Shown here in pieces: positions 2,456 through 19,986 of a stretch of DNA of 33,243 nucleotides (its first letter is position 1; each line of letters begins with the position of its first letter). Source of the stretch: Dehalococcoidia bacterium (lineage in GTDB: Bacteria > Chloroflexota > Dehalococcoidia > GIF9 > UBA5629); NCBI GenBank assembly GCA_007280145.1, contig QYPU01000022.1:1-33243 (forward strand), written 5' to 3'. Below the pieces are notes generated by a model. It was given only the letters and a program-made list of their open reading frames with translations, was not told the DNA's origin and ran no database searches. Made by a program: the position numbers and the translations under genes.

Positions 2456-2484
2456 TTGTTAAACGTGGGTCAAATATATAGAAT
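2456..2484 (+). promoter_or_regulatory. Putative promoter placing the transcription start at about the tRNA-Arg 5' end
   Basis: TTGTTA (2456-2461), a 17-nt spacer, then TAGAAT (2479-2484). The tRNA begins at 2492. Confidence 0.35.
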
Positions 2485-2491
2485 AGATGAA

Positions 2492-2563
2492 GCCCCTGTA
2501 GCTCAGGGGATAGAGCACCGGCCTCCGGAGCCGGGCGCGAGGGTTCGAGTCCCTCCAGGGGCG
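2492..2563 (+). tRNA. tRNA-Arg (anticodon CCG)
   Basis: A cloverleaf was folded by hand: acceptor GCCCCTG/CAGGGGC, D arm GCTC-AGGGGATA-GAGC, anticodon arm CCGGC-CTCCGGA-GCCGG (anticodon CCG), T arm GAGGG-TTCGAGT-CCCTC, discriminator G. No CCA is encoded. Confidence 0.9.
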
Positions 2564-2582: not shown

Positions 2583-3470
2583 TTGATGGAAAAAGACGAA
2601 ACTATTGAGATTCGCTGGCATGGAAGAGGTGGACAGGGGGCAGTAACATCAGCTGAGTTGCTGGCACTGGCAGCTATAAACGAGGGAAAATTTGCTCAAG
2701 CTTTTCCCAGCTTTGGTCCAGAGAGAAGAGGTGCCCCAGTCCTGGCTTTCAATCGCATAAGTAATGTCGGTCATATTCGGGTTAGAGCTGCGGTAACAAA
2801 TCCTGATGTTGTAGTGGTTTTAGACCCCGGTTTAATTTATATCACTGATGTCACATCAGGGCTTAAGCAAGATGGCATAGTGGTGGTAAATACCCCTAAG
2901 TCATTAGCTGACATAAAGTCAGAGCTAAGCGGTCCGTGGAAACTGGCGGTGGTTAATGCAACTGTCATTGCCCGCGAGGCGCTTGGAATCCCCATTGTTA
3001 ATACTGCTATGCTCGGGGCGCTGCTAAAGGCTACAGAGATACTTGGATTAGAATCTCTGGTGGAACCGATAAAAGAGCGCTTTGGACCCAGAGCTAAGAA
3101 TAATATTGATGCTTGCCATAGAGCATATGAGGAAACTCTGATGGCTGAGCTGAGTGTTGTTGGGCAAGGACCACGTAAGGCATTCGAAACAGAAAGATTG
3201 CTTTCATGGCAAGAGTTGCTCCCTGGCTGCGTTGTTATCGAGGCAGGGAATGCCAAGCAATATCGTACTGGTGACTGGAAGTCGCAGCATCCAGTCTGGG
3301 ACCAGCAAAGGTGTATCAAATGTGGGATTTGTTCTCTCTTTTGTCCTGAGGGCTGCATCGGGCAAAATAAGGAAGGCGATTTCGAAGCCAACATGTATTA
3401 TTGCAAGGGGTGTGGCATTTGTGCCCGTGAGTGCTGGACAGAAGCGATAACAATGGTCGAGGAAACATAG
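2583..3470 (+). CDS. porG: Pyruvate (2-oxoacid):ferredoxin oxidoreductase, fused gamma and delta (2x[4Fe-4S]) subunits
   Basis: The N-terminus (IRWHGRGGQGAVTSAELLALAA) is typical of POR gamma. The C-terminus has two ferredoxin motifs (CIKCGICSLFCPEGC and CKGCGICARECWTEA). The start is either TTG 2583 or ATG 2586. Confidence 0.9.
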   Translation: MMEKDETIEIRWHGRGGQGAVTSAELLALAAINEGKFAQAFPSFGPERRGAPVLAFNRISNVGHIRVRAAVTNPDVVVVLDPGLIYITDVTSGLKQDGIVVVNTPKSLADIKSELSGPWKLAVVNATVIAREALGIPIVNTAMLGALLKATEILGLESLVEPIKERFGPRAKNNIDACHRAYEETLMAELSVVGQGPRKAFETERLLSWQELLPGCVVIEAGNAKQYRTGDWKSQHPVWDQQRCIKCGICSLFCPEGCIGQNKEGDFEANMYYCKGCGICARECWTEAITMVEET

Positions 3471-3472
3471 CA

Positions 3473-4651
3473 ATGGCAACAAAACGAATAGGGATGGAGG
3501 GTTCTTTTGCTATAGCTGAGGCTGTTAAACTAGCCAATGCTGATGTTGTAGCTGCCTATCCTATTACTCCGCAAACACACATAGTCGAACGTCTAGCTGA
3601 ATTGGTAGCTAACGGTGAATTAAATGCTGAATATATACCGGTAGAATCGGAGCATTCAGCAATGAGTGCTTGTCTTGGCTCTTCTGCTGTTGGTGCCAGA
3701 ACCTTCACTGCCACAGCTGGGCAAGGCCTTGAACTGATGCATGAGGTGCTGTATGTTGCTTCGTCATTACGGCTGCCAATAGTTATGACAGTGGCTAACC
3801 GAGCACTCTCGGGACCCTTGAGTGTCTGGGGTGACCATTCTGATGTTATGGCAACTCGGGATTGTGGTTGGATTCAAATATTTGCTGAAAATGTTCAGCA
3901 GGTCTTTGATTTGGTTCTATGTGCTTTTCATATCGCTGAGGACCCATCGGTTCTCTTCCCGACAATGGTTCATGTTGATGGCTTTCACCTTTCCCATGTT
4001 ATAGAGTCTCTGTATCTACTTGAGCAGGAGGAGGTGGATAAATTTCTACCCAAATATCACCATCCCTATGCTCTGAATCCAGATAAGCCGGTAACTATAG
4101 GTGCTTTCGGCCCACCTAATATCTATACTGAAACTAAGAAGCCACAGGATATAGCCTTGAGGGCTTCCAAGAAGGTAATTCTGCAAGTTTGGCGAAAGTT
4201 TAGCGAACTCACCGGACGTTACTATTCTCCTGTGGAAAGCTATAAGGCAAAGGATGCTGATGTATTACTATTGGTTATGGGCAGCTTTAGCGAGACTGCC
4301 ATGATGGCTATAGATAAAATGCGAGAAGAGGGGCAAAAAGTAGGATTGATAAGGCTGCGTTTATGGCGGCCTTTTCCCTTTGATGAATTTCGTCAGGCAG
4401 TAGCCCAAGCCCAGTTGCTTATTGTTCTTGACCGTGCCCTATCTTTTGGTGGCCCTACTGGGCCAGTTTGTTCTGAAATTCAGGCAGCTCTTTATCCGCT
4501 GGAGACGAGGCCGAAGATTATTAGCTTTGTCGGTGGTCTTGGCGGCAGAGATATTTCTGTCCCAACGTTTGAAGATATAATTCGCCGTGGGATGGCTAAA
4601 GCGAAACAAGGGCGTCTTGATGAACTAGAAATGATTGAGGTGAGAGAATAG
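3473..4651 (+). CDS. porA: Pyruvate:ferredoxin oxidoreductase alpha subunit
   Basis: MATKRIGMEGSFAIAEAVKLANADVVAAYPITPQTHIVE... is a typical PorA N-terminus. ATG 3473 follows the RBS GAGGAAA and lies 2 nt after the porGD stop. I prefer it to the tracked GTG 3431, which would overlap porGD by 40 nt. Confidence 0.9.
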   Translation: MATKRIGMEGSFAIAEAVKLANADVVAAYPITPQTHIVERLAELVANGELNAEYIPVESEHSAMSACLGSSAVGARTFTATAGQGLELMHEVLYVASSLRLPIVMTVANRALSGPLSVWGDHSDVMATRDCGWIQIFAENVQQVFDLVLCAFHIAEDPSVLFPTMVHVDGFHLSHVIESLYLLEQEEVDKFLPKYHHPYALNPDKPVTIGAFGPPNIYTETKKPQDIALRASKKVILQVWRKFSELTGRYYSPVESYKAKDADVLLLVMGSFSETAMMAIDKMREEGQKVGLIRLRLWRPFPFDEFRQAVAQAQLLIVLDRALSFGGPTGPVCSEIQAALYPLETRPKIISFVGGLGGRDISVPTFEDIIRRGMAKAKQGRLDELEMIEVRE

Positions 4652-5577
4652 TGGAAAGCTTGGCTATATATGCCCCACGCCTGGTAACTACCAAGGAGTA
4701 CCTTGCTTCAGGGCATCGTGCCTGTTCAGGATGTGGTGAAGTCTTAGCTGTAAGGCTTACATGCAAGGCTTTAGGCAGAAATGTAATCATTGTAAATGCC
4801 ACTGGCTGCATGGAAATTGTTTCCTCCCAACTCCCCTATACTTCCTGGGAAGTACCTTGGATTCATACTCTGTTTGAGAATACTGCCGCTGTAGCTTCAG
4901 GGATAGAAGCCGGGATAAAAGTTCTGAGCCGTAAGGGGGGATATTCTCAAAAAACCAAGGTAGTAGCTATGGCTGGTGACGGGGGCACTATGGATATTGG
5001 TCTCCAGGCTCTATCAGGTGCCTTGGAGAGAGGGCATAACTTTATCTATATTTGTTACGACAACGAAGCCTATATGAACACCGGTATCCAGCGTTCGAGC
5101 GCTACACCTTTTGGTGCTTCTACCACCACATCACCTGCAGGCAAAATAAGCATTGGGCAAACCTCATGGAAGAAAAATATGCCAGCTATTGCTGCTGCTC
5201 ATGATATCCCTTATGTAGCTACTGCTTGCACTAGTTATCCCTTTGACCTGATGAACAAAGTCAAGAAAGCTATGAAAGTTGAAGGGCCGGCTTACATCCA
5301 CGTATTATCTGTTTGCCCCACCGGCTGGCGACTACCTTCTGATTTGACTATCAAGGCAGGACGGTTAGCCGTAGAAACGGGCGTTTTCCCTCTATATGAG
5401 ATAGAAGCAGGTAAGTATACTTTAAATTTTGATTTTCCCCAGCTTCGTCCGGTTGAGGATTACCTGAAGCTGCAAGGGAGATTCCGACATCTCTCCAAAG
5501 AAGTAGTAGCTCAAATTCAGGAGAGAGTAAAGGCTGAATATGCCAAGCTTAAGAGGAAGGTTATCCAGGGTTCGTGA
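4651..5577 (+). CDS. porB: Pyruvate:ferredoxin oxidoreductase beta subunit (TPP-binding)
   Basis: It carries the CSGCGE... FeS/TPP region and the TPP motif GDGGTMDIGLQALSGALERGHNFIYICYDNEAYMNTG. The GTG start overlaps the porA stop. Confidence 0.9.
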   Translation: MESLAIYAPRLVTTKEYLASGHRACSGCGEVLAVRLTCKALGRNVIIVNATGCMEIVSSQLPYTSWEVPWIHTLFENTAAVASGIEAGIKVLSRKGGYSQKTKVVAMAGDGGTMDIGLQALSGALERGHNFIYICYDNEAYMNTGIQRSSATPFGASTTTSPAGKISIGQTSWKKNMPAIAAAHDIPYVATACTSYPFDLMNKVKKAMKVEGPAYIHVLSVCPTGWRLPSDLTIKAGRLAVETGVFPLYEIEAGKYTLNFDFPQLRPVEDYLKLQGRFRHLSKEVVAQIQERVKAEYAKLKRKVIQGS

Positions 5578-6029
5578 TGATGGATGAAAAGGTTATTGCC
5601 GTCATCAACAAATACAATGGAGACAAAGGCCAGCTAATTTCCATACTTCAGGATATCCAGGCTGAATACTATTATCTTCCCAAGGAGGCTTTGGTCCAGG
5701 CAAGCGAAGCTATGGACATTCCCTTAAGCCACGTATATAGTCTGGTCACCTTTTTTAAAGCTTTTAGCCTTGAACCTAGGGGCAAGCATTTAGTTAGTGT
5801 TTGCCTGGGCACTGCTTGCCATGTCAGAGGTGTGGCTAGGGTGCTGGATAAAATTGAACGAAGTTTAGACATCGGGCGAGGTGAAACCACCAAAGACCAT
5901 AAATTCACACTGGAGACGGTCAACTGTATGGGCTGCTGTGCCGTCGGGCCAGCCGTAAAAATTGATGGGGAGTACTTCGGCCAAATGAGTACTGATAAGG
6001 TCGATCCTTTGTTGGCGAAGTTCGAGTAG
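5574..6029 (+). CDS. NuoE/HydC/HndA-like thioredoxin-fold [2Fe-2S] subunit
   Basis: 151 aa. The cysteine pattern VCLGTACHVRG...VNCMGCCAVGPAV is the NuoE-type 2Fe-2S signature. The start (GTG 5574, ATG 5577 or ATG 5580) overlaps the porB TGA. Confidence 0.85.
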   Translation: MMMDEKVIAVINKYNGDKGQLISILQDIQAEYYYLPKEALVQASEAMDIPLSHVYSLVTFFKAFSLEPRGKHLVSVCLGTACHVRGVARVLDKIERSLDIGRGETTKDHKFTLETVNCMGCCAVGPAVKIDGEYFGQMSTDKVDPLLAKFE

Positions 6030-6044
6030 TTAAATAGAGGTAAG

Positions 6045-7910
6045 ATGCTGAATAGACTCTGCTCAAGAAAAGAGTTGGAAGTTCTGCAAAAGGGACTAGT
6101 AAGTAGGATGCAGTCGGAAAAGCTGCGAATTGCTGTATGCAACGGAACAGCTTGTCATCCCTATGGTTGTGTGAAAATCATTGAAGCCTTCAAAACAGAA
6201 CTGGCGAAACAAGGACTGGAAAATAAAGTAGATTTAAAAATCACAGGCTGCCATGGTCTTTGTGAAAGGGGTCCCATTGCGGTTATACGACCAGGTGATA
6301 TTTTTTACCAGCAATTAAAAGTAGAGGATGTGCCTGAGATAATAAGCAAGACAATTGTCAATGGTAATATTATTGATAGATTACTTTATGCCGACCCTGC
6401 TACCGGGAAAAAGCTTGTGTACCAACGAGAGATACCTTTTTACCGAAAGCAGCAAAGACTTATTTTCGGTAGTAATTGTGAAATTGACCCAACCAGTGCC
6501 GAAGATTATATCGCTATAGGCGGTTATACTGCTCTAGCTAAAGCCCTTTTCGAAATGACTCCAGAACAGATAATTGATGAAATTAAGCATTCTGGATTAA
6601 GGGGACGTGGTGGTGGTGGCTTTCCTACTGGAATAAAGTGGGAATCTTGCCGTAATGCTCCAGGAGATATTAGATATGTTATTGTAAATGCTGATGAAGG
6701 TGACCCCGGAGCTTATGCTAATGAAGGTCTACTTACAGGGAATCCACACAGCGTACTTGAAGGGTTAATTATTGGTGCCTATGCTATTGGTGCTCGAGAA
6801 GGCTACGTTTATGTTCGTAATGAATATCCTCTGGCACTAGCCAACATAACGACAGCCATCGAGCAAGCAGAGCAGCTAGGGTTTCTAGGTAACAATATTT
6901 TGGGTTCAGGTTTTGACTTTGATGTCCGTATAACTAGAGGTGGGGGTGCCTTTGTCTGTGGTGAATCCACAGCGCTGATGGCATCTCTAGAAGGTAAAGT
7001 AGGGGAGCCGAGGGCTAAATATGTTCACACGGTGGAGAAGGGGTTGTGGGATAGGCCCAGCGACCTGAATAACGTGGAGACGTGGGCGAATGTGCCGCTA
7101 ATAATCAATAAAGGCGCCGACTGGTACCAGACTATAGGTAGCGAGGGTAATGAAGGGACAAAAATATTTTCTCTAACTGGTAAAGTCAACAATACCGGCT
7201 TGGTAGAAGTACCCATGGGGATAACTCTCCGGGAAATCATTTATGACATTGGTGGTGGGATAAAGGGAGGTAAAAAGTTCAAAGCTGTGCAAACTGGAGG
7301 ACCATCGGGTGGATGCTTGCCTGAAAGCTTGCTTGATTTGCCAGTAGATTTCGATGAGCTAACAAAAGCTGGCTCGATGATGGGCTCTGGCGGCATGATT
7401 GTTATGGATGAAGGTAATTGTATGGTAGATGTGGCTAAGTATTTTCTTACCTTCCTTGAAGAGGAATCTTGTGGCAAGTGCGTGCCATGCCGTGAGGGAA
7501 TCAAGAGAATGCGTCAAATCTTGAATGATATTACTGAAGGCAAGGGCGAAGAAAAAGACATTGACCTTTTGGAGCAGATATCAGCCACTTTAATAGACAG
7601 TTCTCTTTGTGCCTTAGGCACCTCAGCACCAAATCCTGTGTTAACTACTATTCGCTATTTCAGGGATGAATACGAAGCTCATATTAAAGAGAAAAGGTGT
7701 CCTGCCGGTGTCTGTAAGGCGTTAATTCGTTATTACATAATAGAGGAAAAATGCCCGGGCTGTGGTCTTTGTGTTAAAGCTTGCCCCGAGGGAGCTATAA
7801 CCTCTATGGGTAAGGGTAAGAAGAAGCCGGTAGTTCTTGATGAATCAAAATGTATCAAATGTGGTGCTTGCTACGATGTGTGTAGATTAGGGGCTATAGG
7901 CATAGAATAA
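6045..7910 (+). CDS. NuoF/HydB/HndC-like NAD(P)H-binding FMN flavoprotein with extra FeS domains
   Basis: 621 aa. There is an N-terminal extra 2Fe-2S thioredoxin-like domain (CNGTACH...[10 protein letters not shown]). The FMN/NADH site is [13 protein letters not shown] and the N3 cluster is [12 protein letters not shown]. The C-terminus has 2x[4Fe-4S] ([14 protein letters not shown] and [11 protein letters not shown]). Confidence 0.9.
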
Positions 7911-7911
7911 G

Positions 7912-8631
7912 ATGATAACCTTAAGCATTGATGGCCGTGAGTTGAAAGCCGAAAAAGGGCAAACAATTCTCCAGGTAGCTAGCGAAAACGGCATTGATAT
8001 ACCCACTCTCTGCTACCATGAGGCTTTGGAGCCCTATGGTGCCTGTCGGCTATGTGTCGTAGAGATTTTCAAGGGAGGGCGGTCCAGGGTAGTAGCCTCC
8101 TGTCTTTATCCGGTGGAAGAAGGGTTAGAAGTAAAGACCAGTTCACCTCGGGTATTAGATAACCGCAAGATGATATTGGAGCTGCTTTTAGCCCGATGTT
8201 GTAAAAATAAGGTAATACAGGAATTAGCCGCACAGATGGGCATTGAGCAGCCCTCGTTCAAGCCAGAATACCTGGAAGACAACGATTGTATTCTCTGTGG
8301 TTTGTGCGTTAGAGCTTGTGAGCAAGTTGTTGGGGTGAGTGCTATTAGCCTAGTTAATCGTGGGATAACCAAAGAGGTTGCGCCTCCTTTCTTTGAGGCA
8401 GCTACAGCTTGTATCGGTTGCGGCTCCTGCTATTATGTTTGTCCTACTGGTGCCATAAAGATGGAAGATAAGGGAGATACCAGGATAATACATAACTGGA
8501 AGGTCGAGTTTAAACTCAAGAAGTGTAAAGTATGCGGTAATTACTGGGCACCAGAAAAGCAGCTAGATTATATCAGGGATAAATTGCATCTACCTGAAGA
8601 ATTCTTTGATGTCTGCCCCGATTGCAAGTAA
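7912..8631 (+). CDS. Small 2Fe-2S plus 2x[4Fe-4S] protein resembling only the N-terminal FeS part of NuoG/HydA/FdhA
   Basis: 239 aa. It has a plant-type 2Fe-2S N-terminus (ITLSIDGRELKAEKGQTILQVA...CYHEALEPYGACRLCVVE) followed by CILCGLCVRACE and CIGCGSCYYVCPTGA. The C-terminus has CKVCG...CPDCK. There is no H-cluster or molybdopterin domain. The ATG lies 1 nt after the previous stop. Confidence 0.8.
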   Translation: MITLSIDGRELKAEKGQTILQVASENGIDIPTLCYHEALEPYGACRLCVVEIFKGGRSRVVASCLYPVEEGLEVKTSSPRVLDNRKMILELLLARCCKNKVIQELAAQMGIEQPSFKPEYLEDNDCILCGLCVRACEQVVGVSAISLVNRGITKEVAPPFFEAATACIGCGSCYYVCPTGAIKMEDKGDTRIIHNWKVEFKLKKCKVCGNYWAPEKQLDYIRDKLHLPEEFFDVCPDCK

Positions 8632-8662: not shown

Positions 8663-8692
8663 TTGACTCTGTCAAACTGGTTAACCTATACT
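8663..8692 (+). promoter_or_regulatory. Putative promoter of tRNA-Pro
   Basis: TTGACT (8663-8668), an 18-nt spacer, then TATACT (8687-8692). The tRNA begins at 8701. Confidence 0.45.
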
Positions 8693-8700
8693 TTCTGCTA

Positions 8701-8773
8701 CGGGGTGTAGCGCAGTGGGTAGCGCGCATGGTTTGGGACCATGAGGTCGGAGGTTCAAATCCTCTCACCCCGA
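8701..8773 (+). tRNA. tRNA-Pro (anticodon TGG)
   Basis: Acceptor CGGGGTG/CACCCCG, D arm GCGC-AGTGGGTA-GCGC, anticodon arm CATGG-TTTGGGA-CCATG (anticodon TGG), T arm GGAGG-TTCAAAT-CCTCT, discriminator A. Confidence 0.9.
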
Positions 8774-8801
8774 CTGATTTATCTCCTTCTTGAATCCAGA
8801 C

Positions 8802-10453: not shown

Positions 10454-11071
10454 CTATTGCTTTACGAGCTCTATACCCTTGTTGAAAGCTTTCATATTAG
10501 CCTCAATCTCTTTAGGAAAGGTCTCTTGTAATATAGGCTCCACTGATTTCTCGTCTAGCGGCAGAACGCCGGAGCCAATAAGGGCGCCGATAAGAATTGA
10601 ATTGGCGAATATAGGACTCCCCATTTTTTGTGCTTCCTCGGTGGCATTTACTATCCATGTTTTGGCCGACAGCTCCTTAATGGCTTCCATCAGCTTATCC
10701 AAGTCCGGGTATTCAGCCTGACCACCGGTGACGTCAATGGAGTATATTGGCCTGGGGTTGATTATAGTGACGATAGCTGGGTTGCCGAACTGCCTCATCA
10801 TTCGCAAGGTTTCCACCGGTTCCATACCGAGGATGATATCAGCATGGCCATCGGGAATGAATGGGCTGTACTGGGTTTCTCTTGAAATTCTGACGTGGCT
10901 CATAACGGGGCCACCTCGTTGGGATGCCCCATAGGTCTCTCCGATAGTCACCAGGTAGCCCTCTTTCACCAGGGCATTGCCAATAATCAGGGATATCATT
11001 ACATTGCCCTGACCACCGACGCCGGTAATAATAAGGTTAAGCGGGTCTTTCACCAATTGTTTTATGGTCAT
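10454..11071 (-). CDS. iorB: Indolepyruvate (arylpyruvate):ferredoxin oxidoreductase beta subunit
   Basis: MTIKQLVKDPLNLIITGVGGQGNVMISLIIGNAL... is a typical IorB N-terminus. I chose ATG 11071 because it overlaps the iorA TGA as ATGA. The tracked upstream ATG 11125 would run 58 nt into iorA. Confidence 0.88.
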   Translation of the reverse strand: MTIKQLVKDPLNLIITGVGGQGNVMISLIIGNALVKEGYLVTIGETYGASQRGGPVMSHVRISRETQYSPFIPDGHADIILGMEPVETLRMMRQFGNPAIVTIINPRPIYSIDVTGGQAEYPDLDKLMEAIKELSAKTWIVNATEEAQKMGSPIFANSILIGALIGSGVLPLDEKSVEPILQETFPKEIEANMKAFNKGIELVKQ

Positions 11072-13005
11072 GCTGCCTCCTTTATGATGGCTCCTTGTGG
11101 GCAGATGTCTGTACATACGCCGCACCCGGTGCAGATTACCTCGTCTATCTTGGACTTACCAACTTTTTTGTCCCATACCAGCCCAGGGCAGAGAAATACT
11201 CTGGTGCATAATCTGTCACAGCCACAGGCCTCTCCAATGCATTTATCTGGGTCTACATGCACTTTATACGGGGGCTTCTCCTTTTTGCCTCTCACTAGTT
11301 CACACTCACGTCGCATTATGGCTACCTTAGCACCGCCGCCCTCGGCCATCATTTCCAGCAGCGTTGCCGTGGTGCTTTCAAGGTCGAAGGGGTCGCAAAT
11401 CTCAACGCGTGCTCCCAATGAGCGGCATAAGGCTTCCATACTTACCACTTTCGTTGGTTCCCCCATGGCCGTCATTCCAGTTCCAGGGTGGGGTTGGAAA
11501 CCGGTCATGGCGGTGGCATTATTATCCAGAATGACAAGGATAAAATTCGACTGATTGTAGATGCCGTTTATCAATGCCGGGATAGTGGCATGGAAGAAGG
11601 TTGAGTCGCCGCACACGGCAAGCACTGGTTGGTTGAAGCCAAACTGTCCGAGTTTCCCTAGCCCGTTAGCTATTCCAGCTCCAGCTCCCATGCAGTGCAT
11701 TGTCCTCACCTGGAAAAAACCGGCAGGTCCCAGTGCCAGGGAGTAGCAGCCAATATCGCCGGTTACAATACCATCGCGCCCGTCCAGCTTGAGCGCGTTC
11801 TTGATTGCCCAGAAGGTAGCGCGGTGGGGACAGCCAGCGCAAAAGGTCATACTTCGTTCGGGAACGGAGCTTTTGGAGAACTCTTCTGCCTTCTTGCCAT
11901 ACTCAACATCGCGAGGTTGGTATGTGATGCTCGTTATGCTGGCTATTGCTTTAATAACCAGGTCTGGGTTTAGCTCTCCGTAGGCATTTATATGTTTCGA
12001 GCGTTTGCCATAGAAGGTAGGGCGTGGGCTATCGGCTGGCAGGTTGGCAACCATTTCCATCACGCTCCGCTCGAGAAAAGGGTCAATCTCTTCTACAAAT
12101 AGGATTTTCCGTGATTTATTCAGATGCTTTTCCACAAACTTTTCTGGTAGGGGCCATAGGGTGCCCAGCTTCAAGATACCTACCTTATCCTCCAGTTTTA
12201 ATGCCTTCACTGCGTCCTGAGAATAGAGCCAGCAGCTGCCACAAGTTATAATCAACAAATCTGCCTTATCTGGCCCCACATAATAGTTGAAAGGTGACGA
12301 TTCAAACTTTTCCTGTGCCTTGTCCAGCTTTAGATGCAGGAAGGCATGCCGCAGTGCACTCGGGACTGGCATAAATGTCGTCGGCATAACATTTCTTAAA
12401 TCGTGTATCTGGTCGAAATATGCCTTTTGTTCTTTCTTGGGCAACTCACCTAATTTTACATTGCCCCTGGCATGGGCAATACGAGTTACGCTCCGGAGCA
12501 TACACAAGGTGCCTGTCTTCTCGGCAAGGTCAAAAAGCCATTTCGTCATATCCTTGGCTTCCTGAAAAGTGCCCGGCTCTACCAGCGGAATATCCAGCCA
12601 CTTAGCTATAGGCCGTGTATCTTGCTCGTTAGAGCTGGAGATAGCCGACGGGTCATCGCAGCTTATCAAGACCAGTCCTCCCTTCCCTATGCCCGCTATG
12701 ACTAAATTCGCCAAGAAGTCAGAGACGACGTTTACCCCGTTCTGCTTCATACTTGCAAGCGCTCGAATGCCGGCGAAAGAAGCTCCAGCAGCAGCTTCCA
12801 TAGCTACCTTTTCGTTTATAGACCACTCTGCGTAAATGCCCATCTTCTTGGCTATTGGCGCCAGGCTGCCCATAATCTCCGATGATGGCGTCCCCGGGTA
12901 GGAGGCAGCAAATCCTATCCCTGCCTCTAATGCACCCCGGGCAATAGCTTCGTTACCGATAAAAAGTTGGCTGGTACCAGGGGCGTCTATATCAATAGTT
13001 GCCAT
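11068..13005 (-). CDS. iorA: Indolepyruvate:ferredoxin oxidoreductase alpha subunit (TPP and 2x[4Fe-4S])
   Basis: 645 aa. The N-terminus is GNEAIARGALEAGIGFAASYPGTPSSEI, the TPP motif is GDSTFFHATIPALINGIYNQSNFILVILDNNATAMTG, and the C-terminal ferredoxin motifs are CIGEACGCDRLC and CTGCGVCTDICPQGA. Confidence 0.92.
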   Translation of the reverse strand: MATIDIDAPGTSQLFIGNEAIARGALEAGIGFAASYPGTPSSEIMGSLAPIAKKMGIYAEWSINEKVAMEAAAGASFAGIRALASMKQNGVNVVSDFLANLVIAGIGKGGLVLISCDDPSAISSSNEQDTRPIAKWLDIPLVEPGTFQEAKDMTKWLFDLAEKTGTLCMLRSVTRIAHARGNVKLGELPKKEQKAYFDQIHDLRNVMPTTFMPVPSALRHAFLHLKLDKAQEKFESSPFNYYVGPDKADLLIITCGSCWLYSQDAVKALKLEDKVGILKLGTLWPLPEKFVEKHLNKSRKILFVEEIDPFLERSVMEMVANLPADSPRPTFYGKRSKHINAYGELNPDLVIKAIASITSITYQPRDVEYGKKAEEFSKSSVPERSMTFCAGCPHRATFWAIKNALKLDGRDGIVTGDIGCYSLALGPAGFFQVRTMHCMGAGAGIANGLGKLGQFGFNQPVLAVCGDSTFFHATIPALINGIYNQSNFILVILDNNATAMTGFQPHPGTGMTAMGEPTKVVSMEALCRSLGARVEICDPFDLESTTATLLEMMAEGGGAKVAIMRRECELVRGKKEKPPYKVHVDPDKCIGEACGCDRLCTRVFLCPGLVWDKKVGKSKIDEVICTGCGVCTDICPQGAIIKEAA

Positions 13006-13036
13006 GTTACTTACCTCCTTGATTTCCTATCTACTG

Positions 13037-14149
13037 CTAGGCCAATAACTTGTCTGCCAGGGCCGGTGATAAACCAACATAGAGCAGGTTCTTTTTATCA
13101 CCACTCCTCTTGATGATTTCCTTTAATGCCCGTTTCTTTTTGAGCAGCGCTGCCTCCTTAAGATGAGCTAGATTCTGCGGAGGCAACTTATCAGTCTCAA
13201 GTTTCCCTTTTGCTTTAGCCATCTCCATAAGCTTAGCGCCAACATCGGTGCGAATAATAACCGTATTCCAACCTTCGATCCCCTCTACCGAGCCAACCGA
13301 AATATCGGCGAACTCTGATGTCATATCCAAACAATAAGCGCAGGTGGGTATGGTGAATTTCCTGATTTGCTCCAGGGGGAACGAGATTTTACCTGACGGG
13401 GTGTAGGCGTCAAACCTGTTTGCTGGAGGCGGTGGAATATCAAATTTGGTTACCCGAGGTAGGTCAAGGTTCTCTCTCAAGAACTGATAGAATCCATCGG
13501 GAGACAGAGCCCAGGTGCAGAACAAGCCGATTACCAGCTTAACATTGTTTATACTAATCCTGTTCTCAGGTGGCTCTTTTTTCATCTTGGTCAGGGCTAG
13601 AGCCTGGCATGGCATGGCAACTATTCCCAAGCTATGGTTGCTGTCTTTTAGGAAATGATTATAGGTTTCCAATATAGGGCATGCCATATAATTGGAGCCG
13701 GCCCCTTGAAGCACCTCCTCCGCACTTTGGGCCAAAAAGGCAATTGGAGTCTTGTCTTCGGATGTCCTGGTTAAGATTGCGTTGTCAATGAGTCCTTCTG
13801 CTAGTGCTAATGATAAGAGTGTGGTTACCGTTCCGCCATATTGCGCTTTCTCTTTAATCTGTGCATCCGTTGACCTTGCTATCAGCACTTCTTTGGTAGT
13901 GCCTAGTTCATCCTCGCTATATGGTACCCCGAAAACTTGCTGGCTAATGGCATCCATATCCGTGTAGGTACGTGGGCAATATTTGTAACACTGCCCTTCT
14001 GATAGGGTACAATTATCTAGAAGCACTATCTTGCCTTTATAGGGTACCAAGTAAGGGCAACCACCAGTACAGGCGCCACATAGAGTGCATAAGTCCTTAT
14101 CTATAACTTCATTCAGTAGCTCCTTGCAGCCTTTAACCTTTGTATCCAT
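13037..14149 (-). CDS. FrhB/FdhB-family (coenzyme F420 hydrogenase/dehydrogenase beta-like) flavo-iron-sulfur protein
   Basis: 370 aa with RBS AGGAGGAG. The N-terminus has CTLCGACTGGCPY. The core blocks (QYGGTVTTLLSLALAEGLIDNAIL, GSNYMACP, SLGIVAMPCQALAL and IGLFCTW) match the FrhB N/C domain pattern. It lies 31 nt upstream of iorA. Confidence 0.75.
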   Translation of the reverse strand: MDTKVKGCKELLNEVIDKDLCTLCGACTGGCPYLVPYKGKIVLLDNCTLSEGQCYKYCPRTYTDMDAISQQVFGVPYSEDELGTTKEVLIARSTDAQIKEKAQYGGTVTTLLSLALAEGLIDNAILTRTSEDKTPIAFLAQSAEEVLQGAGSNYMACPILETYNHFLKDSNHSLGIVAMPCQALALTKMKKEPPENRISINNVKLVIGLFCTWALSPDGFYQFLRENLDLPRVTKFDIPPPPANRFDAYTPSGKISFPLEQIRKFTIPTCAYCLDMTSEFADISVGSVEGIEGWNTVIIRTDVGAKLMEMAKAKGKLETDKLPPQNLAHLKEAALLKKKRALKEIIKRSGDKKNLLYVGLSPALADKLLA

Positions 14150-14614: not shown

Positions 14615-15748
14615 TTAAAACCCTTCTTGCAACACATTCTTTAGTTCTTCTTTACTTAGCGTTGCTATCCCCAACTCTTCAAGCGATCTTCCTTTCTTCC
14701 AGTAATTTGTTTGATTTACTACTGAACTTAACTCGATGATGGAATTGATGATTGGAGTGTGTACACCAAGCTTATTGGCCAATAATGCTGTGGGAACTAA
14801 GCCATAGGGGACATCTTCAGTGACATATCTGCTTTGCATGGAGGAAGGTTCGGTGGCTGAAGCAAATGCTTTCCTTATGAACTCTTTGGCTTCAGGGCTT
14901 GAAAGTGCAATCCCCGGAATCCCCTCGCACTCCTGCATTAATTCCTCTATCGATTCAAACGCCTTATCAGGGATCTTAGCGTAGCTCGTCACTCCAAGAG
15001 CTTGCTGTAGCTTTACAGCTTCTTCATAAACTGCCTTGATTACCCTCAGTACTGATGCAGTCATACCATCCCTGTAGAGCCGGTAATCACTTTTCAAAGT
15101 CTCAATATGCCCTACATTTAGGATTGAGCCGACTGGATGCAGAGCATAGTTGATATTGGCTATTGCGACGCCCAAGACATTTTCGGAGGGGGCAACTCTT
15201 AAGACATCTTTTAGATCATGAATGACCTTGCCCGTATCCTTTCCAGGGAATGCTGCTAGACTATTACTCAATGCATAGGAAAGTATTCTTACCCGAGAGG
15301 GAGCTATCAATCTTGCTGCATAAGGAAGTGTACTTGCCTCAGCCAAGATGATGTTCCTCTTCATTTTCTCCTGCCTTAACATATTGGCAAACAATAGACT
15401 AGCGTAGTTCCCAGGCCATGCAACTACGTGTTGACCATCTTCCAAGTGAGGCATTATTAAATCAAAAAAGCGTTTGTGCCCAAACGCCGGGATAACCACC
15501 ATTACGTAGCCAACACCTTTTAATGCCTCTTCAACATCTATAGTTGCTTTGTGCAACTTAGCGGTCCTTTCTTGCCCTATTGGATCAATCAGATCTATCT
15601 CTCCCCGCTCTGATGTTGTTTTGAACCTCTCCCTAAACTCAGGTGCCTCACACATATTCACTTCAAACCCTTTGATTGCCAAGTCGGCGGCCATAGCATG
15701 AGCGCCATTGCCACCACCCATTACAGCTATTTTATTTTTCATTTTCAT
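14615..15748 (-). CDS. NAD(P)-dependent opine (octopine/nopaline-type) dehydrogenase family protein
   Basis: 377 aa. The N-terminal Rossmann fold is KIAVMGGGNGAHAMAADLAIKGFEVNMCE. The overall pattern (FPGKD...LHPVGSILN...YRLYRDGMT) is typical of the Octopine_DH family. Confidence 0.75.
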   Translation of the reverse strand: MKMKNKIAVMGGGNGAHAMAADLAIKGFEVNMCEAPEFRERFKTTSERGEIDLIDPIGQERTAKLHKATIDVEEALKGVGYVMVVIPAFGHKRFFDLIMPHLEDGQHVVAWPGNYASLLFANMLRQEKMKRNIILAEASTLPYAARLIAPSRVRILSYALSNSLAAFPGKDTGKVIHDLKDVLRVAPSENVLGVAIANINYALHPVGSILNVGHIETLKSDYRLYRDGMTASVLRVIKAVYEEAVKLQQALGVTSYAKIPDKAFESIEELMQECEGIPGIALSSPEAKEFIRKAFASATEPSSMQSRYVTEDVPYGLVPTALLANKLGVHTPIINSIIELSSVVNQTNYWKKGRSLEELGIATLSKEELKNVLQEGF

Positions 15749-15786
15749 TCTCCTTTGTTCTTTTTTGTATCGCTGATTTTAGCACC

Positions 15787-17094
15787 TCACCCACCAGTAA
15801 ATAGACGGGGCAAGGTCAGGGATAACGCTGGGAAATAAGTGGTAAGAATTACCACTGGCAAGTGCCCAAAAATCATGAAGACTAAAGCGGGCTTAATATA
15901 CTCATTGAAGGGGACCTCCCCTATTCTCCCAGCGATATAAAGAAGAGGAGCTACCGGTGGTGTGACATTACCGAGGCCTATGTTAACGGCTACAATAGCC
16001 GCGAAGTGAAGGGGATCAATGCCGATCTCTTTTGCCACTGGCAGTAGGATAGCAGCAGCTAAAAGGGTGCCCGACCCATCATCCATAATCATCCCAATGA
16101 AAAGCAGCAAAATATTCAACATTGCCAGCAAAACATACTTATTTTCAGAGAAGCGCATCATGATGTTGGCTAAGTCTTTCGGCACTTCTGCCAACACTAA
16201 AATATGGCTCAACGTAACTAGAAAGAAGAATAAAGCCAGGGCACTACCGGTGAAAGAGGCTGCCTGGACTGTACTGTCTACCACGCCACCGAAGTTAGTG
16301 GTACGATACACGAGGAGCATTATCGGAATGCAGTAGATTATACCCACCGCTGCTGCTTCTGTTGGGGTGAAGACGCCTCCATAAATCCCGCCTAGAATAA
16401 TGATAGGCAGGAGAAGGATGAGAGACGCCCGTTTGCCAGTCGCACCTATGTTTTTGCTGTACTCTATGAAGGTATTCTTGGCAGGCGCTGCGATGGGCAT
16501 TCGGCGACACATCAGAGCGTTGATGATAAGGTAGGAACAGATGATCAAAAGGCCTGGTATGATTGTGGCCAAGAAGCAGAGCGAGATAGGCACTTGGCCT
16601 ACCAGACCGTATATTATCATGGGTAAGCTGGGGGGGATTAGCATAGCGATGAGACTGGAGCAAGCCACAATCCCTGTGGCATATCCTCTGGGATAGCCAT
16701 CTTGCGCCATGCGTGGCATTACAATAGGGCCAATGGCACCTATTGCAGCGAGAGCACTACCCGATATGGCCCCGAAAATACTGCATGTGAGCACGACTAC
16801 TGCACCAAGACTGCTCTTCGCTCGTCGTATTATCGACTGAACGAAGTCGATGAGCCTATCTGCCAAACCGCTTCGGCCCATGAGGTTACCGAGCAGGATG
16901 AAAAGCGGGAATGCCAATAACGTAAAGGACCCCAAAAATCGTAGGGCGTGAGGTGCGATCCAATCGAAGCCTAGGCCGTACCCGAATATCAGGATAATAC
17001 TGCCAATACCGAATGCGAAACCCACCGGCACCCTGATTATCATGAGCCCAATAGCCACGATTAGCCCTACAGCTAGAACGATAAATATAGACAC
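15787..17094 (-). CDS. dctM: TRAP transporter large permease subunit
   Basis: The protein is polytopic, with typical DctM blocks (LGNLMGRSGLADRLIDF and GIDPLHFAAIVAVNIGLGNVTPPVAPLLY). I chose GTG 17094, just after AGGAGG and the dctQ stop. The tracked ATG 17202 would overlap dctQ by 100 nt. Confidence 0.88.
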   Translation of the reverse strand: MSIFIVLAVGLIVAIGLMIIRVPVGFAFGIGSIILIFGYGLGFDWIAPHALRFLGSFTLLAFPLFILLGNLMGRSGLADRLIDFVQSIIRRAKSSLGAVVVLTCSIFGAISGSALAAIGAIGPIVMPRMAQDGYPRGYATGIVACSSLIAMLIPPSLPMIIYGLVGQVPISLCFLATIIPGLLIICSYLIINALMCRRMPIAAPAKNTFIEYSKNIGATGKRASLILLLPIIILGGIYGGVFTPTEAAAVGIIYCIPIMLLVYRTTNFGGVVDSTVQAASFTGSALALFFFLVTLSHILVLAEVPKDLANIMMRFSENKYVLLAMLNILLLFIGMIMDDGSGTLLAAAILLPVAKEIGIDPLHFAAIVAVNIGLGNVTPPVAPLLYIAGRIGEVPFNEYIKPALVFMIFGHLPVVILTTYFPALSLTLPRLFTGG

Positions 17095-17102
17095 ACATCC
17101 TC

Positions 17103-17597
17103 CTACGTCTTTTGCTGTAATATCCCCATTTTTTGCAACAACTCCACTAGGAAATGCAAAAACATTAATACAGAGCCAATGACTGAAGGAACTAGCACCC
17201 ACAGCCTAGAAAAATGATAAGTAGTAGTGATCTCTCTACGACCATAGACAAACAAACAGTACTTAGAAGTCAAGTACACAACCACGCCAGTCGCAACGAG
17301 GCTAAGCAATAATGCTAGCAGGTCACAAATCCTCAAGTCCCGTTGGTTTTTGGTAAGAACGGGGAGTATATCAACAGTTATATGGTTTCTATCGTATGTC
17401 GCGTAGCCAAGTCCTATAAAGTAGAGCCACATCGCTAGCAATATGCATAACTCTTCTATGCCGAAGATAGGAGATTGGAATACATAGCGTAGTACCACCT
17501 CGCTAAACATCAGTATAGTTATCAATAAGAATAGAAAGGTTAAGCATCCCTTGTAGATACCAACATAATAGCGTGAGAATTTGTCTGCCAACTCCAA
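17103..17597 (-). CDS. dctQ: TRAP transporter small permease subunit
   Basis: 164 aa with four TM segments. Its position between dctP and dctM, and the segment VVLRYVFQSPIFGIEEL, are typical of DctQ. Confidence 0.8.
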   Translation of the reverse strand: MELADKFSRYYVGIYKGCLTFLFLLITILMFSEVVLRYVFQSPIFGIEELCILLAMWLYFIGLGYATYDRNHITVDILPVLTKNQRDLRICDLLALLLSLVATGVVVYLTSKYCLFVYGRREITTTYHFSRLWVLVPSVIGSVLMFLHFLVELLQKMGILQQKT

Positions 17598-17674
17598 TCC
17601 TCCGAGAATCGCCCTAGTTAGAGGTCACTATGGGACGCAACACCTGAAGCTTACTTGTAGCCCCCACACATATT

Positions 17675-18727
17675 CTAAGAACCATTGGAGACGTGTGCCC
17701 TTACGAAGTCCATTAGTTCTTTACCAATCAACTTTTCTACAACTGGAAATTCTCCAGCACGTGATCTTGAAACAAAAACTTGTAGCTCCGCTGGTGTTAG
17801 GTGAATTACCTCTATACCCTTCGTTTCTAGCTCTTTCTCCATTTGGCCCTCTCTTTTCTCAGCTTCTCGCCAAGAGTAGTCAGCCATTTCGGTGGCACAA
17901 TTCAAGAGTATTTCTTGGGTTTCCTTGTCTAGTGAGTTCCACAGAGGAAGGTTGATAGTGAAAGGCTGTATCTCGAAATGGTCATACGTCAGAATGGCAT
18001 AGTCTATTACATCATAGTACTGTTTGTTCATCAGCTCTAAGTCGAGCCCGTCTGTATTGTCGATAACGCCGAGTTGCAGGGATGTATATAGTTCACCGTA
18101 CGGTATCGGAGTAACAATAAAGCCCATACCCTTAGCCCCTGCCTCATAATTGGCTGCGGTGGGGACTCTCAGCTTTATTGTGGAGGCTTCCTCCGGTGTG
18201 CGAAATGGCTTCTTTCCACATATGTGGGTGAATCCCAAAGGACGCAGGGCTAATACCTTCTCATCAGTATCCTCCATAATCCCGGAGAACTTAACAGTAA
18301 GCCAACCTTCCTCTCCAAATCCTCCATAGGCTTGTCTAGCTTCATCCCAGGTTGATACTACATAACCCGTGTAGGCTATCGCTGCTCGTATATCCGCAAA
18401 AGGATTGCATGGTCCAGCCGTCATGTCTAGTGTACCCATTGAGACAGCTTCATGCATTGCCGCATAGTCCCCAAGTTGGCCCGCTGGGAAAAAATTTATC
18501 TTGATTTTGCCATGTGACTTCTTGTCAACACATCCGATGAACAATTCGCAAGCCTCATATTGCACTGTGCCCTCAGCGTCTATTGAACCAAGCTCGAAAG
18601 TATATGTAGGCTCGGTTACCGGCGTTGCTTTCCCACACCCGCTGATAGTAACAATTAAGATTATCGGTAGCGTAAGAACACTGAAAACCAACAGCCGCCT
18701 TTTGATTGATTTATGCTTAATAACCAT
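17675..18727 (-). CDS. dctP: TRAP transporter solute-binding protein, lipoprotein-anchored
   Basis: 350 aa. It has a signal peptide with lipobox TISGC. The length is DctP-like, and it sits next to dctQM. Confidence 0.8.
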   Translation of the reverse strand: MVIKHKSIKRRLLVFSVLTLPIILIVTISGCGKATPVTEPTYTFELGSIDAEGTVQYEACELFIGCVDKKSHGKIKINFFPAGQLGDYAAMHEAVSMGTLDMTAGPCNPFADIRAAIAYTGYVVSTWDEARQAYGGFGEEGWLTVKFSGIMEDTDEKVLALRPLGFTHICGKKPFRTPEEASTIKLRVPTAANYEAGAKGMGFIVTPIPYGELYTSLQLGVIDNTDGLDLELMNKQYYDVIDYAILTYDHFEIQPFTINLPLWNSLDKETQEILLNCATEMADYSWREAEKREGQMEKELETKGIEVIHLTPAELQVFVSRSRAGEFPVVEKLIGKELMDFVRAHVSNGS

Positions 18728-18755
18728 CTTAATACCCCCTTTAATTCAATTCGGG

Positions 18756-19790
18756 CTAAATCACCCTGATTCTAGTACCTATGCCACGTTCTTTTGCTCT
18801 CTTGTATATCTCATTAGCCAGCATTAAGTCGTGAGCTCCCATTCCTATATGTGTATAGACGATGCGTTCCTGCTCGTTTTCACGTCCCGGTTTTGCTCCT
18901 GTAACGATCTCTCCCATATCACCGTACACATCATCCCTGGAAAGCTCCATGGGGACCTTGCCATCTCCACGGAGGTCTATAAGATGATGCCCGTCGGAAC
19001 TCATGTCACCGAGAACCCACTTATCAGCTTTTTTGCTGAGCATAGGATCGAGATCTAAAAAGCCCATCAGACCTGACACAAAACAACCCGGTGAGATCCA
19101 TGGCTCGAGCACAACGGGCTTTTGTGCAGTAGTGATGATACAGACAATATCAGCTTCCTCAACTGCTTCTTTAGCCGACTTCGTTGAGATTATCTCTAAC
19201 GGTAGAGACTCTGCATCCTGTTTGAATTTAGCTACAGCCTCTGGTTTAATGTCGTATACTTTGGCTACCTTAAGAGGGAACAGTTCATTGAAAGCTGCCA
19301 AATGGGGAATGGCTTCTAGTCCGCACCCGATTAAAGCTATTGTCTGAGAGTTCTTTTTGGCAAGGTATTTTGCTGCGATTGCTGAATGCCCGGCGGTTCT
19401 CAGAACCGTAATTAGTCCGCCGTCGAGTAGGGCGAAGGGTTTGCCAGTTTCCTTAGGGTCACACAAGAGAACGAGAGCGTAACCTAGGGGCTGACCGGGA
19501 GCACGATTGGCAAAATCGCTACCATACTTAATTCCGGCAACATTTATGGTTTTGATAAAGCCTGGCATGGCGACGAAAAAGTTTAAGTTGTCAGGAGGAT
19601 CTATAAAAGAGAACTCTTTTTGAGGCTGAACGACTTGCCCCATTCCACACGCTTTGTAGGTCATATCTTCTAAATCAATGACATCGTTCCAAGAAACCAG
19701 GCCTAGCATGTCTGATCGATTGAGAACTAAAACCTCTACTTGTATGTCAGCTCCTTCACCCCAAATCTCGCTTACTTCTTCTTTGCTCAT
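18756..19790 (-). CDS. Ornithine cyclodeaminase / mu-crystallin family NAD(P) enzyme
   Basis: 344 aa. The Rossmann motif is TIALIGCGLEAIPHLAAF and the N-terminal dimerisation region is typical of the OCD_Mu_crystall family. The RBS is TAGGAGTG. Confidence 0.75.
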   Translation of the reverse strand: MSKEEVSEIWGEGADIQVEVLVLNRSDMLGLVSWNDVIDLEDMTYKACGMGQVVQPQKEFSFIDPPDNLNFFVAMPGFIKTINVAGIKYGSDFANRAPGQPLGYALVLLCDPKETGKPFALLDGGLITVLRTAGHSAIAAKYLAKKNSQTIALIGCGLEAIPHLAAFNELFPLKVAKVYDIKPEAVAKFKQDAESLPLEIISTKSAKEAVEEADIVCIITTAQKPVVLEPWISPGCFVSGLMGFLDLDPMLSKKADKWVLGDMSSDGHHLIDLRGDGKVPMELSRDDVYGDMGEIVTGAKPGRENEQERIVYTHIGMGAHDLMLANEIYKRAKERGIGTRIRVI

Positions 19791-19952
19791 TTGTTAAACA
19801 CTCCTATTTAATGATTTTCTGCTGTGACATGATTCACTGGATATTATGTCTAGTCTAAAAATCAACCAAAAGACATCACCTCCTTCATTCCTAGCGCCTT
19901 AACTGTTTGTTGTCCCTTGATGGCTATCACCCCCCTCGGTACTTCTTATGGC

Positions 19953-19980: not shown

Positions 19981-19986
19981 GTGGTA

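Follow-up and report, generated by a model that had tools for sequence, protein, structure and literature searches.

This analysis concerns por-bfu, a block of six genes in a 33,243-nucleotide (nt) stretch of DNA from an uncultured Dehalococcoidia lineage (contig QYPU01000022.1), the whole of which is called the window here. Its gene content, its cofactor ligands, the sequence families of its proteins, and its conserved synteny make it reasonably likely that the block encodes Por-Bfu, a pyruvate:ferredoxin oxidoreductase (PFOR) of the four-subunit type wired to a BfuABC bifurcating module. The Bfu family was defined by Schut et al. in 2022 (Front Microbiol, PMC9304861), who named Por-Bfu as an uncharacterized Type-2 member. 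This kind of arrangement was known before, and an earlier note on this DNA, which had proposed either an NAD(P)+-linked pyruvate oxidoreductase or an NADH-driven supplier of low-potential electrons, arrived independently at a published hypothesis. What the window provides is a new Por-Bfu member in which porG and porD are fused and BfuB is full-length.

The genes after porB form a Type-2 BfuABC module

On sequence grounds, the three genes after porB are a complete Type-2 BfuABC module, because the sites that discriminate BfuB and the clusters and zinc finger of BfuA are all present. Four sites, B2, B3, B4, and B5, set bifurcating BfuB apart from the non-bifurcating NuoF, HoxF, and FdsB (PMC11829005; PMC9304861); NuoF lacks all of them (PMC11829005; PMC9499530). 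The definition of the Bfu family further requires a ferredoxin-type [4Fe-4S] domain in BfuB (PMC9304861). The BfuB of the window has all four discriminating sites. Its N-terminal 2Fe-2S_thioredx domain (residues 23-102, Pfam) holds the ligands of the B5 [2Fe-2S] cluster (Cys 32/37/69/73), and the B2 zinc site consists of His546 and Cys459/552/557, which align with H525/C438/C531/C536 of Acetomicrobium mobile HydB, the offset being 21 throughout. Thr497 occupies the position of C476 in the same HydB, as in FeFe-type enzymes. At the C-terminal end, Fer4 dicluster matches (residues 563-618, Pfam) contain the B3/B4 ligands as two CxxCxxCxxxC motifs (C570-580 and C603-613), and this domain aligns with the C-terminal domains of all solved BfuB proteins.

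The central part of BfuB matches Complex1_51K (2.9e-42), SLBB (1.3e-7), and NADH_4Fe-4S (6e-34), and it contains both the NAD(P)H/flavin mononucleotide (FMN)-site motif named by the earlier note and the B1 [4Fe-4S] ligands Cys 476/479/482/522. The Pfam matches were in agreement with every domain assigned in that note. Its description of the NuoF-like protein as carrying three extra iron-sulfur (FeS) domains needs a correction: three extra FeS clusters are present, but they are housed in two extra domains, and there is a His/Cys3 zinc site besides.

We aligned the proteins with 40 por-linked homologues, in which the cluster and zinc ligands were invariant (40/40), B3/B4 excepted; for BfuB this covers the B1, B2, and B5 residues listed above. 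The nine best Protein Data Bank (PDB) matches of BfuB were all BfuB-type proteins (HydB/NfnB/WorB-like), seven of them from enzymes described as bifurcating and the other two being 9BOV and 8OH5. The top match was 9MQX_B (9e-238), the WorB chain of WorABCSL, a tungsten aldehyde oxidoreductase of A. mobile for which bifurcation has been shown experimentally (PDB 9MQX; PMC12318220). Plain NuoF aligned with less than half the bits of this match. The best PDB matches of BfuC were likewise the BfuC chains of bifurcating enzymes (7T2R_C, 8A6T_C, and 9MQX_C, the last being third-best with an E value of 3.7e-36), and its C1 ligands, Cys 77/82/118/122, are invariant.

The predicted BfuA protein is of Type 2, a pure electron connector. 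It has 16 ligand cysteines, each invariant across the alignment: those of the A1 [2Fe-2S] cluster (Cys 34/45/48/64), those of the A2/A4 [4Fe-4S] clusters (Cys 126-136 and 167-177), and a C-terminal CxxC...CxxC (Cys 205/208/235/238) that aligns with the zinc finger of WorA. An A5 cluster is lacking, the four A5-equivalent cysteines being those of the WorA-type zinc finger. Pfam gave no NADH-G_4Fe-4S_3 match in BfuA, so there is no A3 domain; the A3 region reads LLLARCCKNK, and the H-x3-C-x2-C-x5-C motif is absent from it. Neither an H-cluster domain nor a molybdopterin domain was matched by Pfam, as the earlier note had stated for this 239-residue FeS protein.

The best PDB match of BfuA is WorA (9MQX_A, 4e-51), which aligns over the full length and covers both CxxC pairs. 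The alignment with HydA ends at residue ~207 of 571, and with NuoG only residues ~1-95 align. The protein stops one residue past the second CxxC, leaving no adaptor helix. The AlphaFold2 model of BfuA, built from a nine-sequence alignment, was poor, with a mean predicted local distance difference test score of 62 that fell below 50 over the dicluster region (residues 122-183). At least 24 metagenome contigs encode a protein identical to this BfuA.

The upstream genes encode a full set of Por subunits

The three genes upstream of bfuC encode the full set of alpha, beta (thiamine pyrophosphate [TPP] plus [4Fe-4S]), gamma, and delta (two [4Fe-4S]) parts, with conserved ligands according to Pfam and the alignment. 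PorGD combines a POR domain (1.4e-37) with two Fer4 [4Fe-4S] sites and scores far over the cutoffs of the NCBIfam models PorC_KorC (213.8 bits versus 81) and PorD_KorD (87 versus 60); its cluster ligands, Cys 243/246/249/253 and 273/276/279/283, are all present. In PorB, Cys 25/28/53/222 are invariant (40/40), and the protein lies above the NCBIfam PorB equivalog cutoff (435.5 versus 405). PorA falls under the PorA_Arch equivalog cutoff (481.5 versus 550 bits), as does PorG for the PorC equivalog model (206 versus 225). The next-best NCBIfam models for the Por subunits were VOR subunits. We found porG and porD fused in 15 loci and split in 26, the fusion being restricted to the clade of the window; where split, the two are frequently in the same reading frame with one or more stop codons between them.

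Gene order and junctions of the block

The six genes lie on one strand, with spacing that ranges from a 4-nt overlap to a 15-nt gap (Table 1). Re-examination of the open reading frames (ORFs) bore out the six ORFs and junction coordinates of the earlier note. At the porA/porB junction, the G of the porA TAG (4649-4651) is the first base of the porB GTG at 4651; at the porB/bfuC junction, the candidate bfuC starts GTG 5574, ATG 5577, and ATG 5580 overlap the porB TGA (5575-5577). The porA ATG at 3473 has a GAGGAAA 8 nt upstream, and a GAGGT stands in the 15-nt gap before the bfuB ATG at 6045. The TAA of bfuB ends at 7910, and the bfuA ATG follows at 7912 after 1 nt. A Shine-Dalgarno sequence is present for five of the six genes, with only a weak match upstream of bfuA. 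These stop/start overlaps are consistent with translational coupling, short of proving it.

Our consensus scan found no promoter-like or terminator-like match at any junction of the six genes. Within the block as a whole, it gave 16 promoter-like matches (11.5 ± 3.8 in shuffled sequences) and 6 terminator-like matches (5.6 ± 2.5 in shuffles); both counts are at background level and weigh neither for nor against internal promoters or terminators.

Table 1. Positions of the por-bfu genes and of the flanking tRNA features in the window
Feature	Positions	Strand	Assignment	Evidence or remark
porGD	2586..3470	+	Fused gamma (POR) and delta (2x[4Fe-4S]) subunits of 2-oxoacid:ferredoxin oxidoreductase	ATG start; alternative TTG at 2583
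porA	3473..4651	+	Alpha subunit	POR_N 3.3e-72, PFOR_II 5e-27
porB	4651..5577	+	Beta subunit, TPP- and [4Fe-4S]-binding	TPP_enzyme_C 1.2e-24
bfuC (NuoE/HydC-like)	5574..6029	+	C1 [2Fe-2S]	2Fe-2S_thioredx 7.5e-47
bfuB (NuoF/HydB-like)	6045..7910	+	FMN/NAD(H) site, B1, N-terminal B5, B2 zinc site, C-terminal B3/B4
bfuA Type 2 (NuoG N-terminal/WorA-like)	7912..8631	+	239 residues	Fer2_4 + Fer4 dicluster
Putative sigma-70-like promoter TTGTTA-17-TAGAAT	2456..2484	+		Consensus scan; 7 nt upstream of tRNA-Arg
tRNA-Arg(CCG)	2492..2563	+		ARAGORN, Rfam; ~20 nt before por start
Promoter-like site of tRNA-Pro	8663-8692			Consensus scan
tRNA-Pro(UGG)	8701..8774	+	Downstream border of cassette	ARAGORN, Rfam

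The por-bfu order is conserved across phyla

The earlier note had proposed a survey of synteny. With the BfuA protein as query, we collected 80 genome loci (cited below by L numbers) and searched each for counterparts of the six window proteins. The por genes, bfuC, bfuB, and bfuA occur in the window's order in 42 of the 80 loci, which come from Dehalococcoidia, Thermodesulfobacteriota/'Deltaproteobacteria', Syntrophomonadaceae, Dethiobacter, Leptospirales, Bacillota, and Syntrophobacterales. Because the same gene order recurs in so many loci, the arrangement is not due to chance. Among the full-cluster Dehalococcoidia loci, BfuA identity ranges from 84% down to 53%.

Another four of the 80 loci have por plus bfuA and no bfuBC, and 17 have bfuC-bfuB-bfuA-like genes without por; in these, BfuA identity is at most 57%, except in L027 (65%). 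Conversely, all BfuA homologues above ~57% identity with enough upstream sequence adjoin por in the loci scanned, L027 again excepted. Pairwise distances for PorB correlate with those for the Bfu subunits (r = 0.75-0.80, Mantel correlations of the distance matrices). The earlier note's view that the module serves PFOR rather than a hydrogenase or formate dehydrogenase is supported by this synteny, by a Type-2 BfuA that matches WorA, and by the full set of BfuB discriminators.

In addition, bfuA stays beside por even where the NAD(P)H module has been swapped or lost. This constant place is the best in silico hint that BfuA serves Por directly, because BfuA remains by por when BfuBC is replaced or missing.

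Natural variants of the Por-linked module

The whole B3/B4 domain is lacking from BfuB in 13 of the 40 por-linked homologues, all from metagenome-assembled genomes (MAGs) of Dehalococcoidales/Dehalococcoidaceae (L031, L032, L035, L036, L038, L039, L042, L043, L045, L047, L049, L050, and L058). These short proteins have ~558-565 residues (e.g. L035:8296-9987) and end 2-10 residues beyond the Cys of the zinc site. They belong to a large family: the 120 best database relatives of a ~563-residue short BfuB are of like length, and none has a Fer4 domain. A protein search with the short form returned only MAG proteins with at least 79% identity, and among its few named matches none was from Dehalococcoides mccartyi. 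For the D. mccartyi prototype of Por-Bfu, a snippet of a published alignment ('CPAKECKAL') hints at a full-length BfuB and is not decisive.

The engineered T. kivui HydB variant deltaC-term, which lacks P565-G630, showed low bifurcation activity (PMC10021017). By sequence comparison, the short BfuB appears to be an almost exact natural counterpart of this variant. The short forms would fall outside the Bfu family of Schut et al., because its definition demands the ferredoxin-type [4Fe-4S] domain (PMC9304861).

Other loci differ more widely. In L028 (1796-3745), L029 (3278-5227), and L054 (22-1674), a single 649-residue protein replaces bfuC and bfuB between porB and bfuA. It joins the four-helix-bundle [4Fe-4S] region of BfuB/NuoF to a flavin adenine dinucleotide (FAD)-NADPH domain resembling NfnA/StnC/GltD, and looks like an NADPH-type Por-linked module. 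In L017 (1594-5310) and L060 (114-3902), a BfuA-like zinc-finger FeS gene directly follows por, and bfuBC is absent from the locus. L017 is still flanked by tRNA-Arg and tRNA-Pro, and a thiolase gene stands next.

The acidobacterial locus L061 (6802-16709) has no por. There, a fused NuoE-NuoF protein (bfuCB, 820 residues) and a BfuA-like gene are placed between a CooF-like polyferredoxin gene and genes for acetyl-CoA synthase/carbon monoxide dehydrogenase (ACS/CODH) beta, CdhD, and RACo, so that the locus looks like a Codh/ACS-associated Bfu module. The matches in L059, L062, L066, and L067 are similar to L061, which alone was annotated.

These variants suggest a broader and more tentative reading, which we regard as possible though somewhat doubtful: the small zinc-finger BfuA would be a dedicated docking subunit of Por that takes interchangeable pyridine-nucleotide modules, and the enzyme of the window would be the first TPP-based bifurcating/confurcating pyruvate synthase. 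The modules seen would then be full BfuBC (predicted to bifurcate), BfuBC without the ferredoxin domain, a GltD/NfnA-like NADPH-FAD protein, and none. If this holds, the natural variants amount to a ready-made deletion series for how Bfu enzymes bifurcate.

Proposed mechanism and energetics

From homology with solved enzymes, we infer a physical complex with the following electron path, in which three substrates would be obligately coupled. TPP-dependent decarboxylation of pyruvate would deliver electrons to the PorB [4Fe-4S] cluster and on to the two PorD [4Fe-4S] clusters. They would enter BfuA at A4 and pass over A2 and A1 to the flavobicluster of BfuB and BfuC (B1-FMN-C1). At this site, two electrons would go to NAD+ as hydride, and two further electrons would travel singly, via the mobile C1 domain and B3/B4, to ferredoxin. 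The net reaction, proposed to be reversible, would be 2 pyruvate + 2 CoA + NAD+ + 2 Fd(ox) = 2 acetyl-CoA + 2 CO2 + NADH + 2 Fd(red), where Fd is ferredoxin. NAD(H) is assumed as the pyridine nucleotide by homology with NAD-bound WorB and the NAD(H)-using Bfu core; the reaction of T. kivui HydABC has been written with NAD(P)+ (PMC10021017).

The physiological direction may be either. In reverse, acetyl-CoA and CO2 would yield pyruvate with half of the electrons from NADH and half from reduced ferredoxin. The earlier note's NADH-driven supplier of low-potential electrons is thermodynamically incomplete as worded; what stands is the part of NADH, which in Bfu logic is a co-donor with reduced ferredoxin (confurcation). 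In the oxidative alternative, NAD+ and ferredoxin would be the co-acceptors. The standard potential (E0') of the acetyl-CoA + CO2/pyruvate couple is about -500 mV (PMC9304861). By our estimate, ~10 mM CO2 and ~10 µM pyruvate bring this potential up to roughly -400 mV, and NADH and reduced ferredoxin average ~-390 mV; confurcating pyruvate synthesis would then be near thermoneutral only when pyruvate is low.

If Por-Bfu works as predicted, the interconversion of pyruvate and acetyl-CoA, where biosynthesis starts in anaerobes that assimilate acetate, Dehalococcoidia among them, would be coupled to the NADH and ferredoxin pools together. Energy-starved cells would make pyruvate with half the costly low-potential electrons or, with the enzyme running oxidatively, would use the coupling to drive pyruvate oxidation even when the ferredoxin pool is highly reduced. 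Flavin-based bifurcation would moreover be extended to TPP enzymes.

Weighing the alternatives

Several observations weigh against a bifurcating Por-Bfu. Pyruvate is the best-supported substrate and the likely one, yet its specificity is not certain, because neither PorA nor PorG reaches its NCBIfam equivalog cutoff. Synteny and correlated distances mean co-inheritance and are no proof of contact. BfuA has no adaptor helix of the kind that recruits the catalytic module in WorABCSL. Coupling to ferredoxin is not universal in the Por-linked family, in which the BfuB may be short and the NAD(P)H module may be another or none. Pyruvate, at ~-500 mV, can reduce ferredoxin and NAD+ uncoupled, and the benefit of bifurcation is unclear, as conceded by Schut et al. 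(PMC9304861). Finally, we found no biochemistry or structure of Por-Bfu in the papers searched, of which only two mention it, both as hypothetical; this agrees with the earlier note, which knew of no biochemical characterization of such an arrangement.

A Por-BfuABC complex might form and not bifurcate, in which case it would be just an NAD+-dependent pyruvate oxidoreductase, or an NADH-dependent synthase, with the extra BfuB clusters vestigial or regulatory. Por-linked BfuB without B3/B4 is common in Dehalococcoidales, so the link between Por and NuoEF persists there without a ferredoxin site. NAD-linked 2-oxoacid oxidoreductases exist, such as those described by the PadEFGHI models in NCBIfam, and by the potentials given in PMC9304861 pyruvate oxidation alone can reduce NAD+ exergonically. 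We nevertheless consider such an enzyme unlikely: the window BfuB retains all B2-B5 ligands, which are invariant in full-length relatives, and Wor-Bfu, with a similarly low-potential substrate, reduced neither acceptor alone (PMC9304861). The evidence linking Por and Bfu is genetic, and it would also suit two co-transcribed but separate enzymes, namely an ordinary PFOR and a BfuABC-like ferredoxin:NAD+ oxidoreductase that stands alone and, through soluble ferredoxin, keeps the ferredoxin pool in balance. The missing adaptor helix, which tethers the catalytic module in WorABCSL, and the loci with por and BfuA only (L017 and L060) point the same way. Against this, BfuA is always beside por even when BfuBC is swapped or lost, order and tight spacing are maintained across phyla, and no function has been described for a BfuABC that lacks a third substrate (PMC9304861), which makes a pair of independent enzymes improbable.

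The NuoE/NuoF/FeS proteins could also serve a partner encoded elsewhere, the candidates being a hydrogenase, a formate dehydrogenase, and the 11-subunit complex I, which has no NADH module of its own. Complex I of the Dehalococcoides type is indeed without NuoEFG (PMC11238625), and BfuA-like proteins of 44-57% identity adjoin other partners, for example ACS/CODH in L061. On the other side, the window BfuA has neither the His-ligated A3/N5 cluster nor any of the NuoG C-terminal domain. In the established structure of complex I, N5 and this domain are needed to reach NuoI. No hydrogenase, formate dehydrogenase, or nuo gene was detected by Pfam among the ORFs of at least 150 residues in the 33-kb window, and the closer BfuA homologues stand beside por, apart from the single exception noted above. 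A distant partner is, in our judgment, very unlikely, and the bifurcating Por-Bfu enzyme is the reading that we prefer.

Relation to known systems

The prototype of Por-Bfu is that of D. mccartyi 195, for which co-expression data exist (PMC9304861). The window shares with Por-Bfu the order of por genes followed by bfuC, bfuB, and bfuA; a BfuA with A1, A2, and A4 only, a zinc finger, and no C-terminal helix (PMC12318220); the placement of the cassette between two tRNA genes; and occurrence in Chloroflexi and syntrophic 'Proteobacteria'. It differs in that it comes from another, uncultured lineage of Dehalococcoidia, in that it has six genes (porGD being fused) instead of seven, and in that its BfuA is only ~53-57% identical to those of Dehalococcoidaceae loci. 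Schut et al. proposed for Por-Bfu a role in pyruvate synthesis for gluconeogenesis from NADH and ferredoxin (PMC9304861). The only later mention that we found calls Por-Bfu hypothetical and describes the BfuA zinc finger without the helix (PMC12318220). A literature search for the D. mccartyi locus tags DET0724-0730 returned nothing, and that on PFOR/NADH bifurcation in dehalococcoids surfaced only two papers, metagenomic surveys by their titles and abstracts. The value of the present locus lies mainly in being a clean, complete example with full-length BfuB and fused PorGD; the idea itself has been published since 2022, and the series of natural variants and the tRNA-leader arrangement described below are the more useful leads.

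WorABCSL, the closest solved homologue of both BfuA and BfuB, also has a Type-2 BfuA without A3 and with a four-Cys zinc finger, shares the BfuB cofactor set, and likewise acts on a low-potential third substrate. It differs in catalysis, which is carried out by the tungstopterin protein WorL with the polyferredoxin WorS as a nanowire and not by a TPP enzyme, and in the adaptor alpha-helix at the end of WorA. The HydABC [FeFe]-hydrogenases of T. maritima (7P5H), T. kivui (8A6T), and A. woodii (8A5E) have the BfuB/BfuC core in common with the window, comprising FMN, B1, the N-terminal [2Fe-2S] cluster, the zinc hinge, C-terminal B3/B4, and C1. The A subunit of the window, in contrast, covers only residues 1-~210 of HydA and lacks the H-cluster domain and the His-ligated A3.

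With the N-module of complex I, the block shares homologous NuoE and central NuoF regions, and the [2Fe-2S] N terminus of NuoG matches BfuA 1-95, whereas NuoF is without B2-B5 and the window BfuA is without N5 and the large NuoG C-terminal domain. An identity as a complex I N-module was rejected on the missing N5/A3 and NuoG C-terminal domain and on the lack of nuo genes in the window. TPP/FeS 2-oxoacid enzymes coupled to a pyridine-nucleotide flavoprotein are also known in phenylglyoxylate:NAD+ oxidoreductase (PadEFGHI) and in the pyruvate:NADP+ oxidoreductase of Euglena and Cryptosporidium. Their NAD(P) modules are of the FAD/FMN reductase type, not a NuoEF/Bfu core, and do not imply bifurcation.

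A probable tRNA-Arg leader for the operon

That two tRNA genes flank Por-Bfu has already been remarked (PMC9304861). In our scan, tRNA-Arg(CCG) stands ahead of por in nearly all Dehalococcoidia loci (exceptions L009, L032, L010, and L013), tRNA-Pro(UGG) follows bfuA in most of them, and the flanks are kept in variant Dehalococcoidia loci too; the layout was not found in the other phyla among the loci scanned. The distance from the end of tRNA-Arg to the por start was 18-22 nt in the five loci measured, an interval too short for a promoter, and a -35 TTG with a -10-like element is kept at the same position upstream of tRNA-Arg in 12 Dehalococcoidia loci. Because these elements are conserved before the tRNA and no room for a promoter is left between it and por, the operon is probably transcribed from upstream of tRNA-Arg, with the tRNA as its leader. 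The 5' end of the por-bfu mRNA would then be made by 3' processing of the tRNA.

The tRNA-tufB operon of Escherichia coli is a comparable tRNA-led transcript. In two Dehalococcoidia loci, the por-bfu cassette is inverted with respect to the tRNAs that flank it. Both tRNAs of L010 (1090-7374) are on the strand opposite to the cassette, and 5 nt separate bfuA from the tRNA-Arg that follows it; in L013 (481-6821), the tRNA scan found tRNA-Arg and not tRNA-Pro.

Neighboring genes in the window

A hydrogenase or formate dehydrogenase partner within the window was looked for with Pfam in the ORFs of 150 residues or more and rejected; one of these ORFs had no match. A 300-residue ORF at 30940-31842 (-) has no Pfam match. 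A lone 5S rRNA gene lies at 32312-32428, with neither 16S nor 23S rRNA detected in the window.

Just upstream of tRNA-Arg, the region 13-2421 encodes a CBS-pair protein, a Na+/H+ exchanger, and a Na+-translocating oxaloacetate decarboxylase beta subunit of which only the C-terminal part is present, the window beginning inside its gene. A second 2-oxoacid oxidoreductase, consisting of an IorA-like fused alpha/beta protein of 645 residues and an IorB-like gamma subunit, is encoded at 10454-14149 (-). The gene immediately upstream of these IorAB-like genes is FrhB/FdhB-like (F420-hydrogenase beta family), and its product may represent a further unusual redox partner of a 2-oxoacid oxidoreductase. 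The genes at 14615-21011 (-) comprise an opine/octopine dehydrogenase, a tripartite ATP-independent periplasmic (TRAP) transporter (DctM/DctQ/DctP), an ornithine cyclodeaminase-family gene, and an IclR regulator; they look like a cluster for the uptake and catabolism of opines or amino-acid derivatives. The oxaloacetate decarboxylase beta fragment, the IorAB-like genes, the TRAP transporter, and the opine dehydrogenase together suggest that the organism uses organic acids or amino acids rather than being a strict organohalide respirer.

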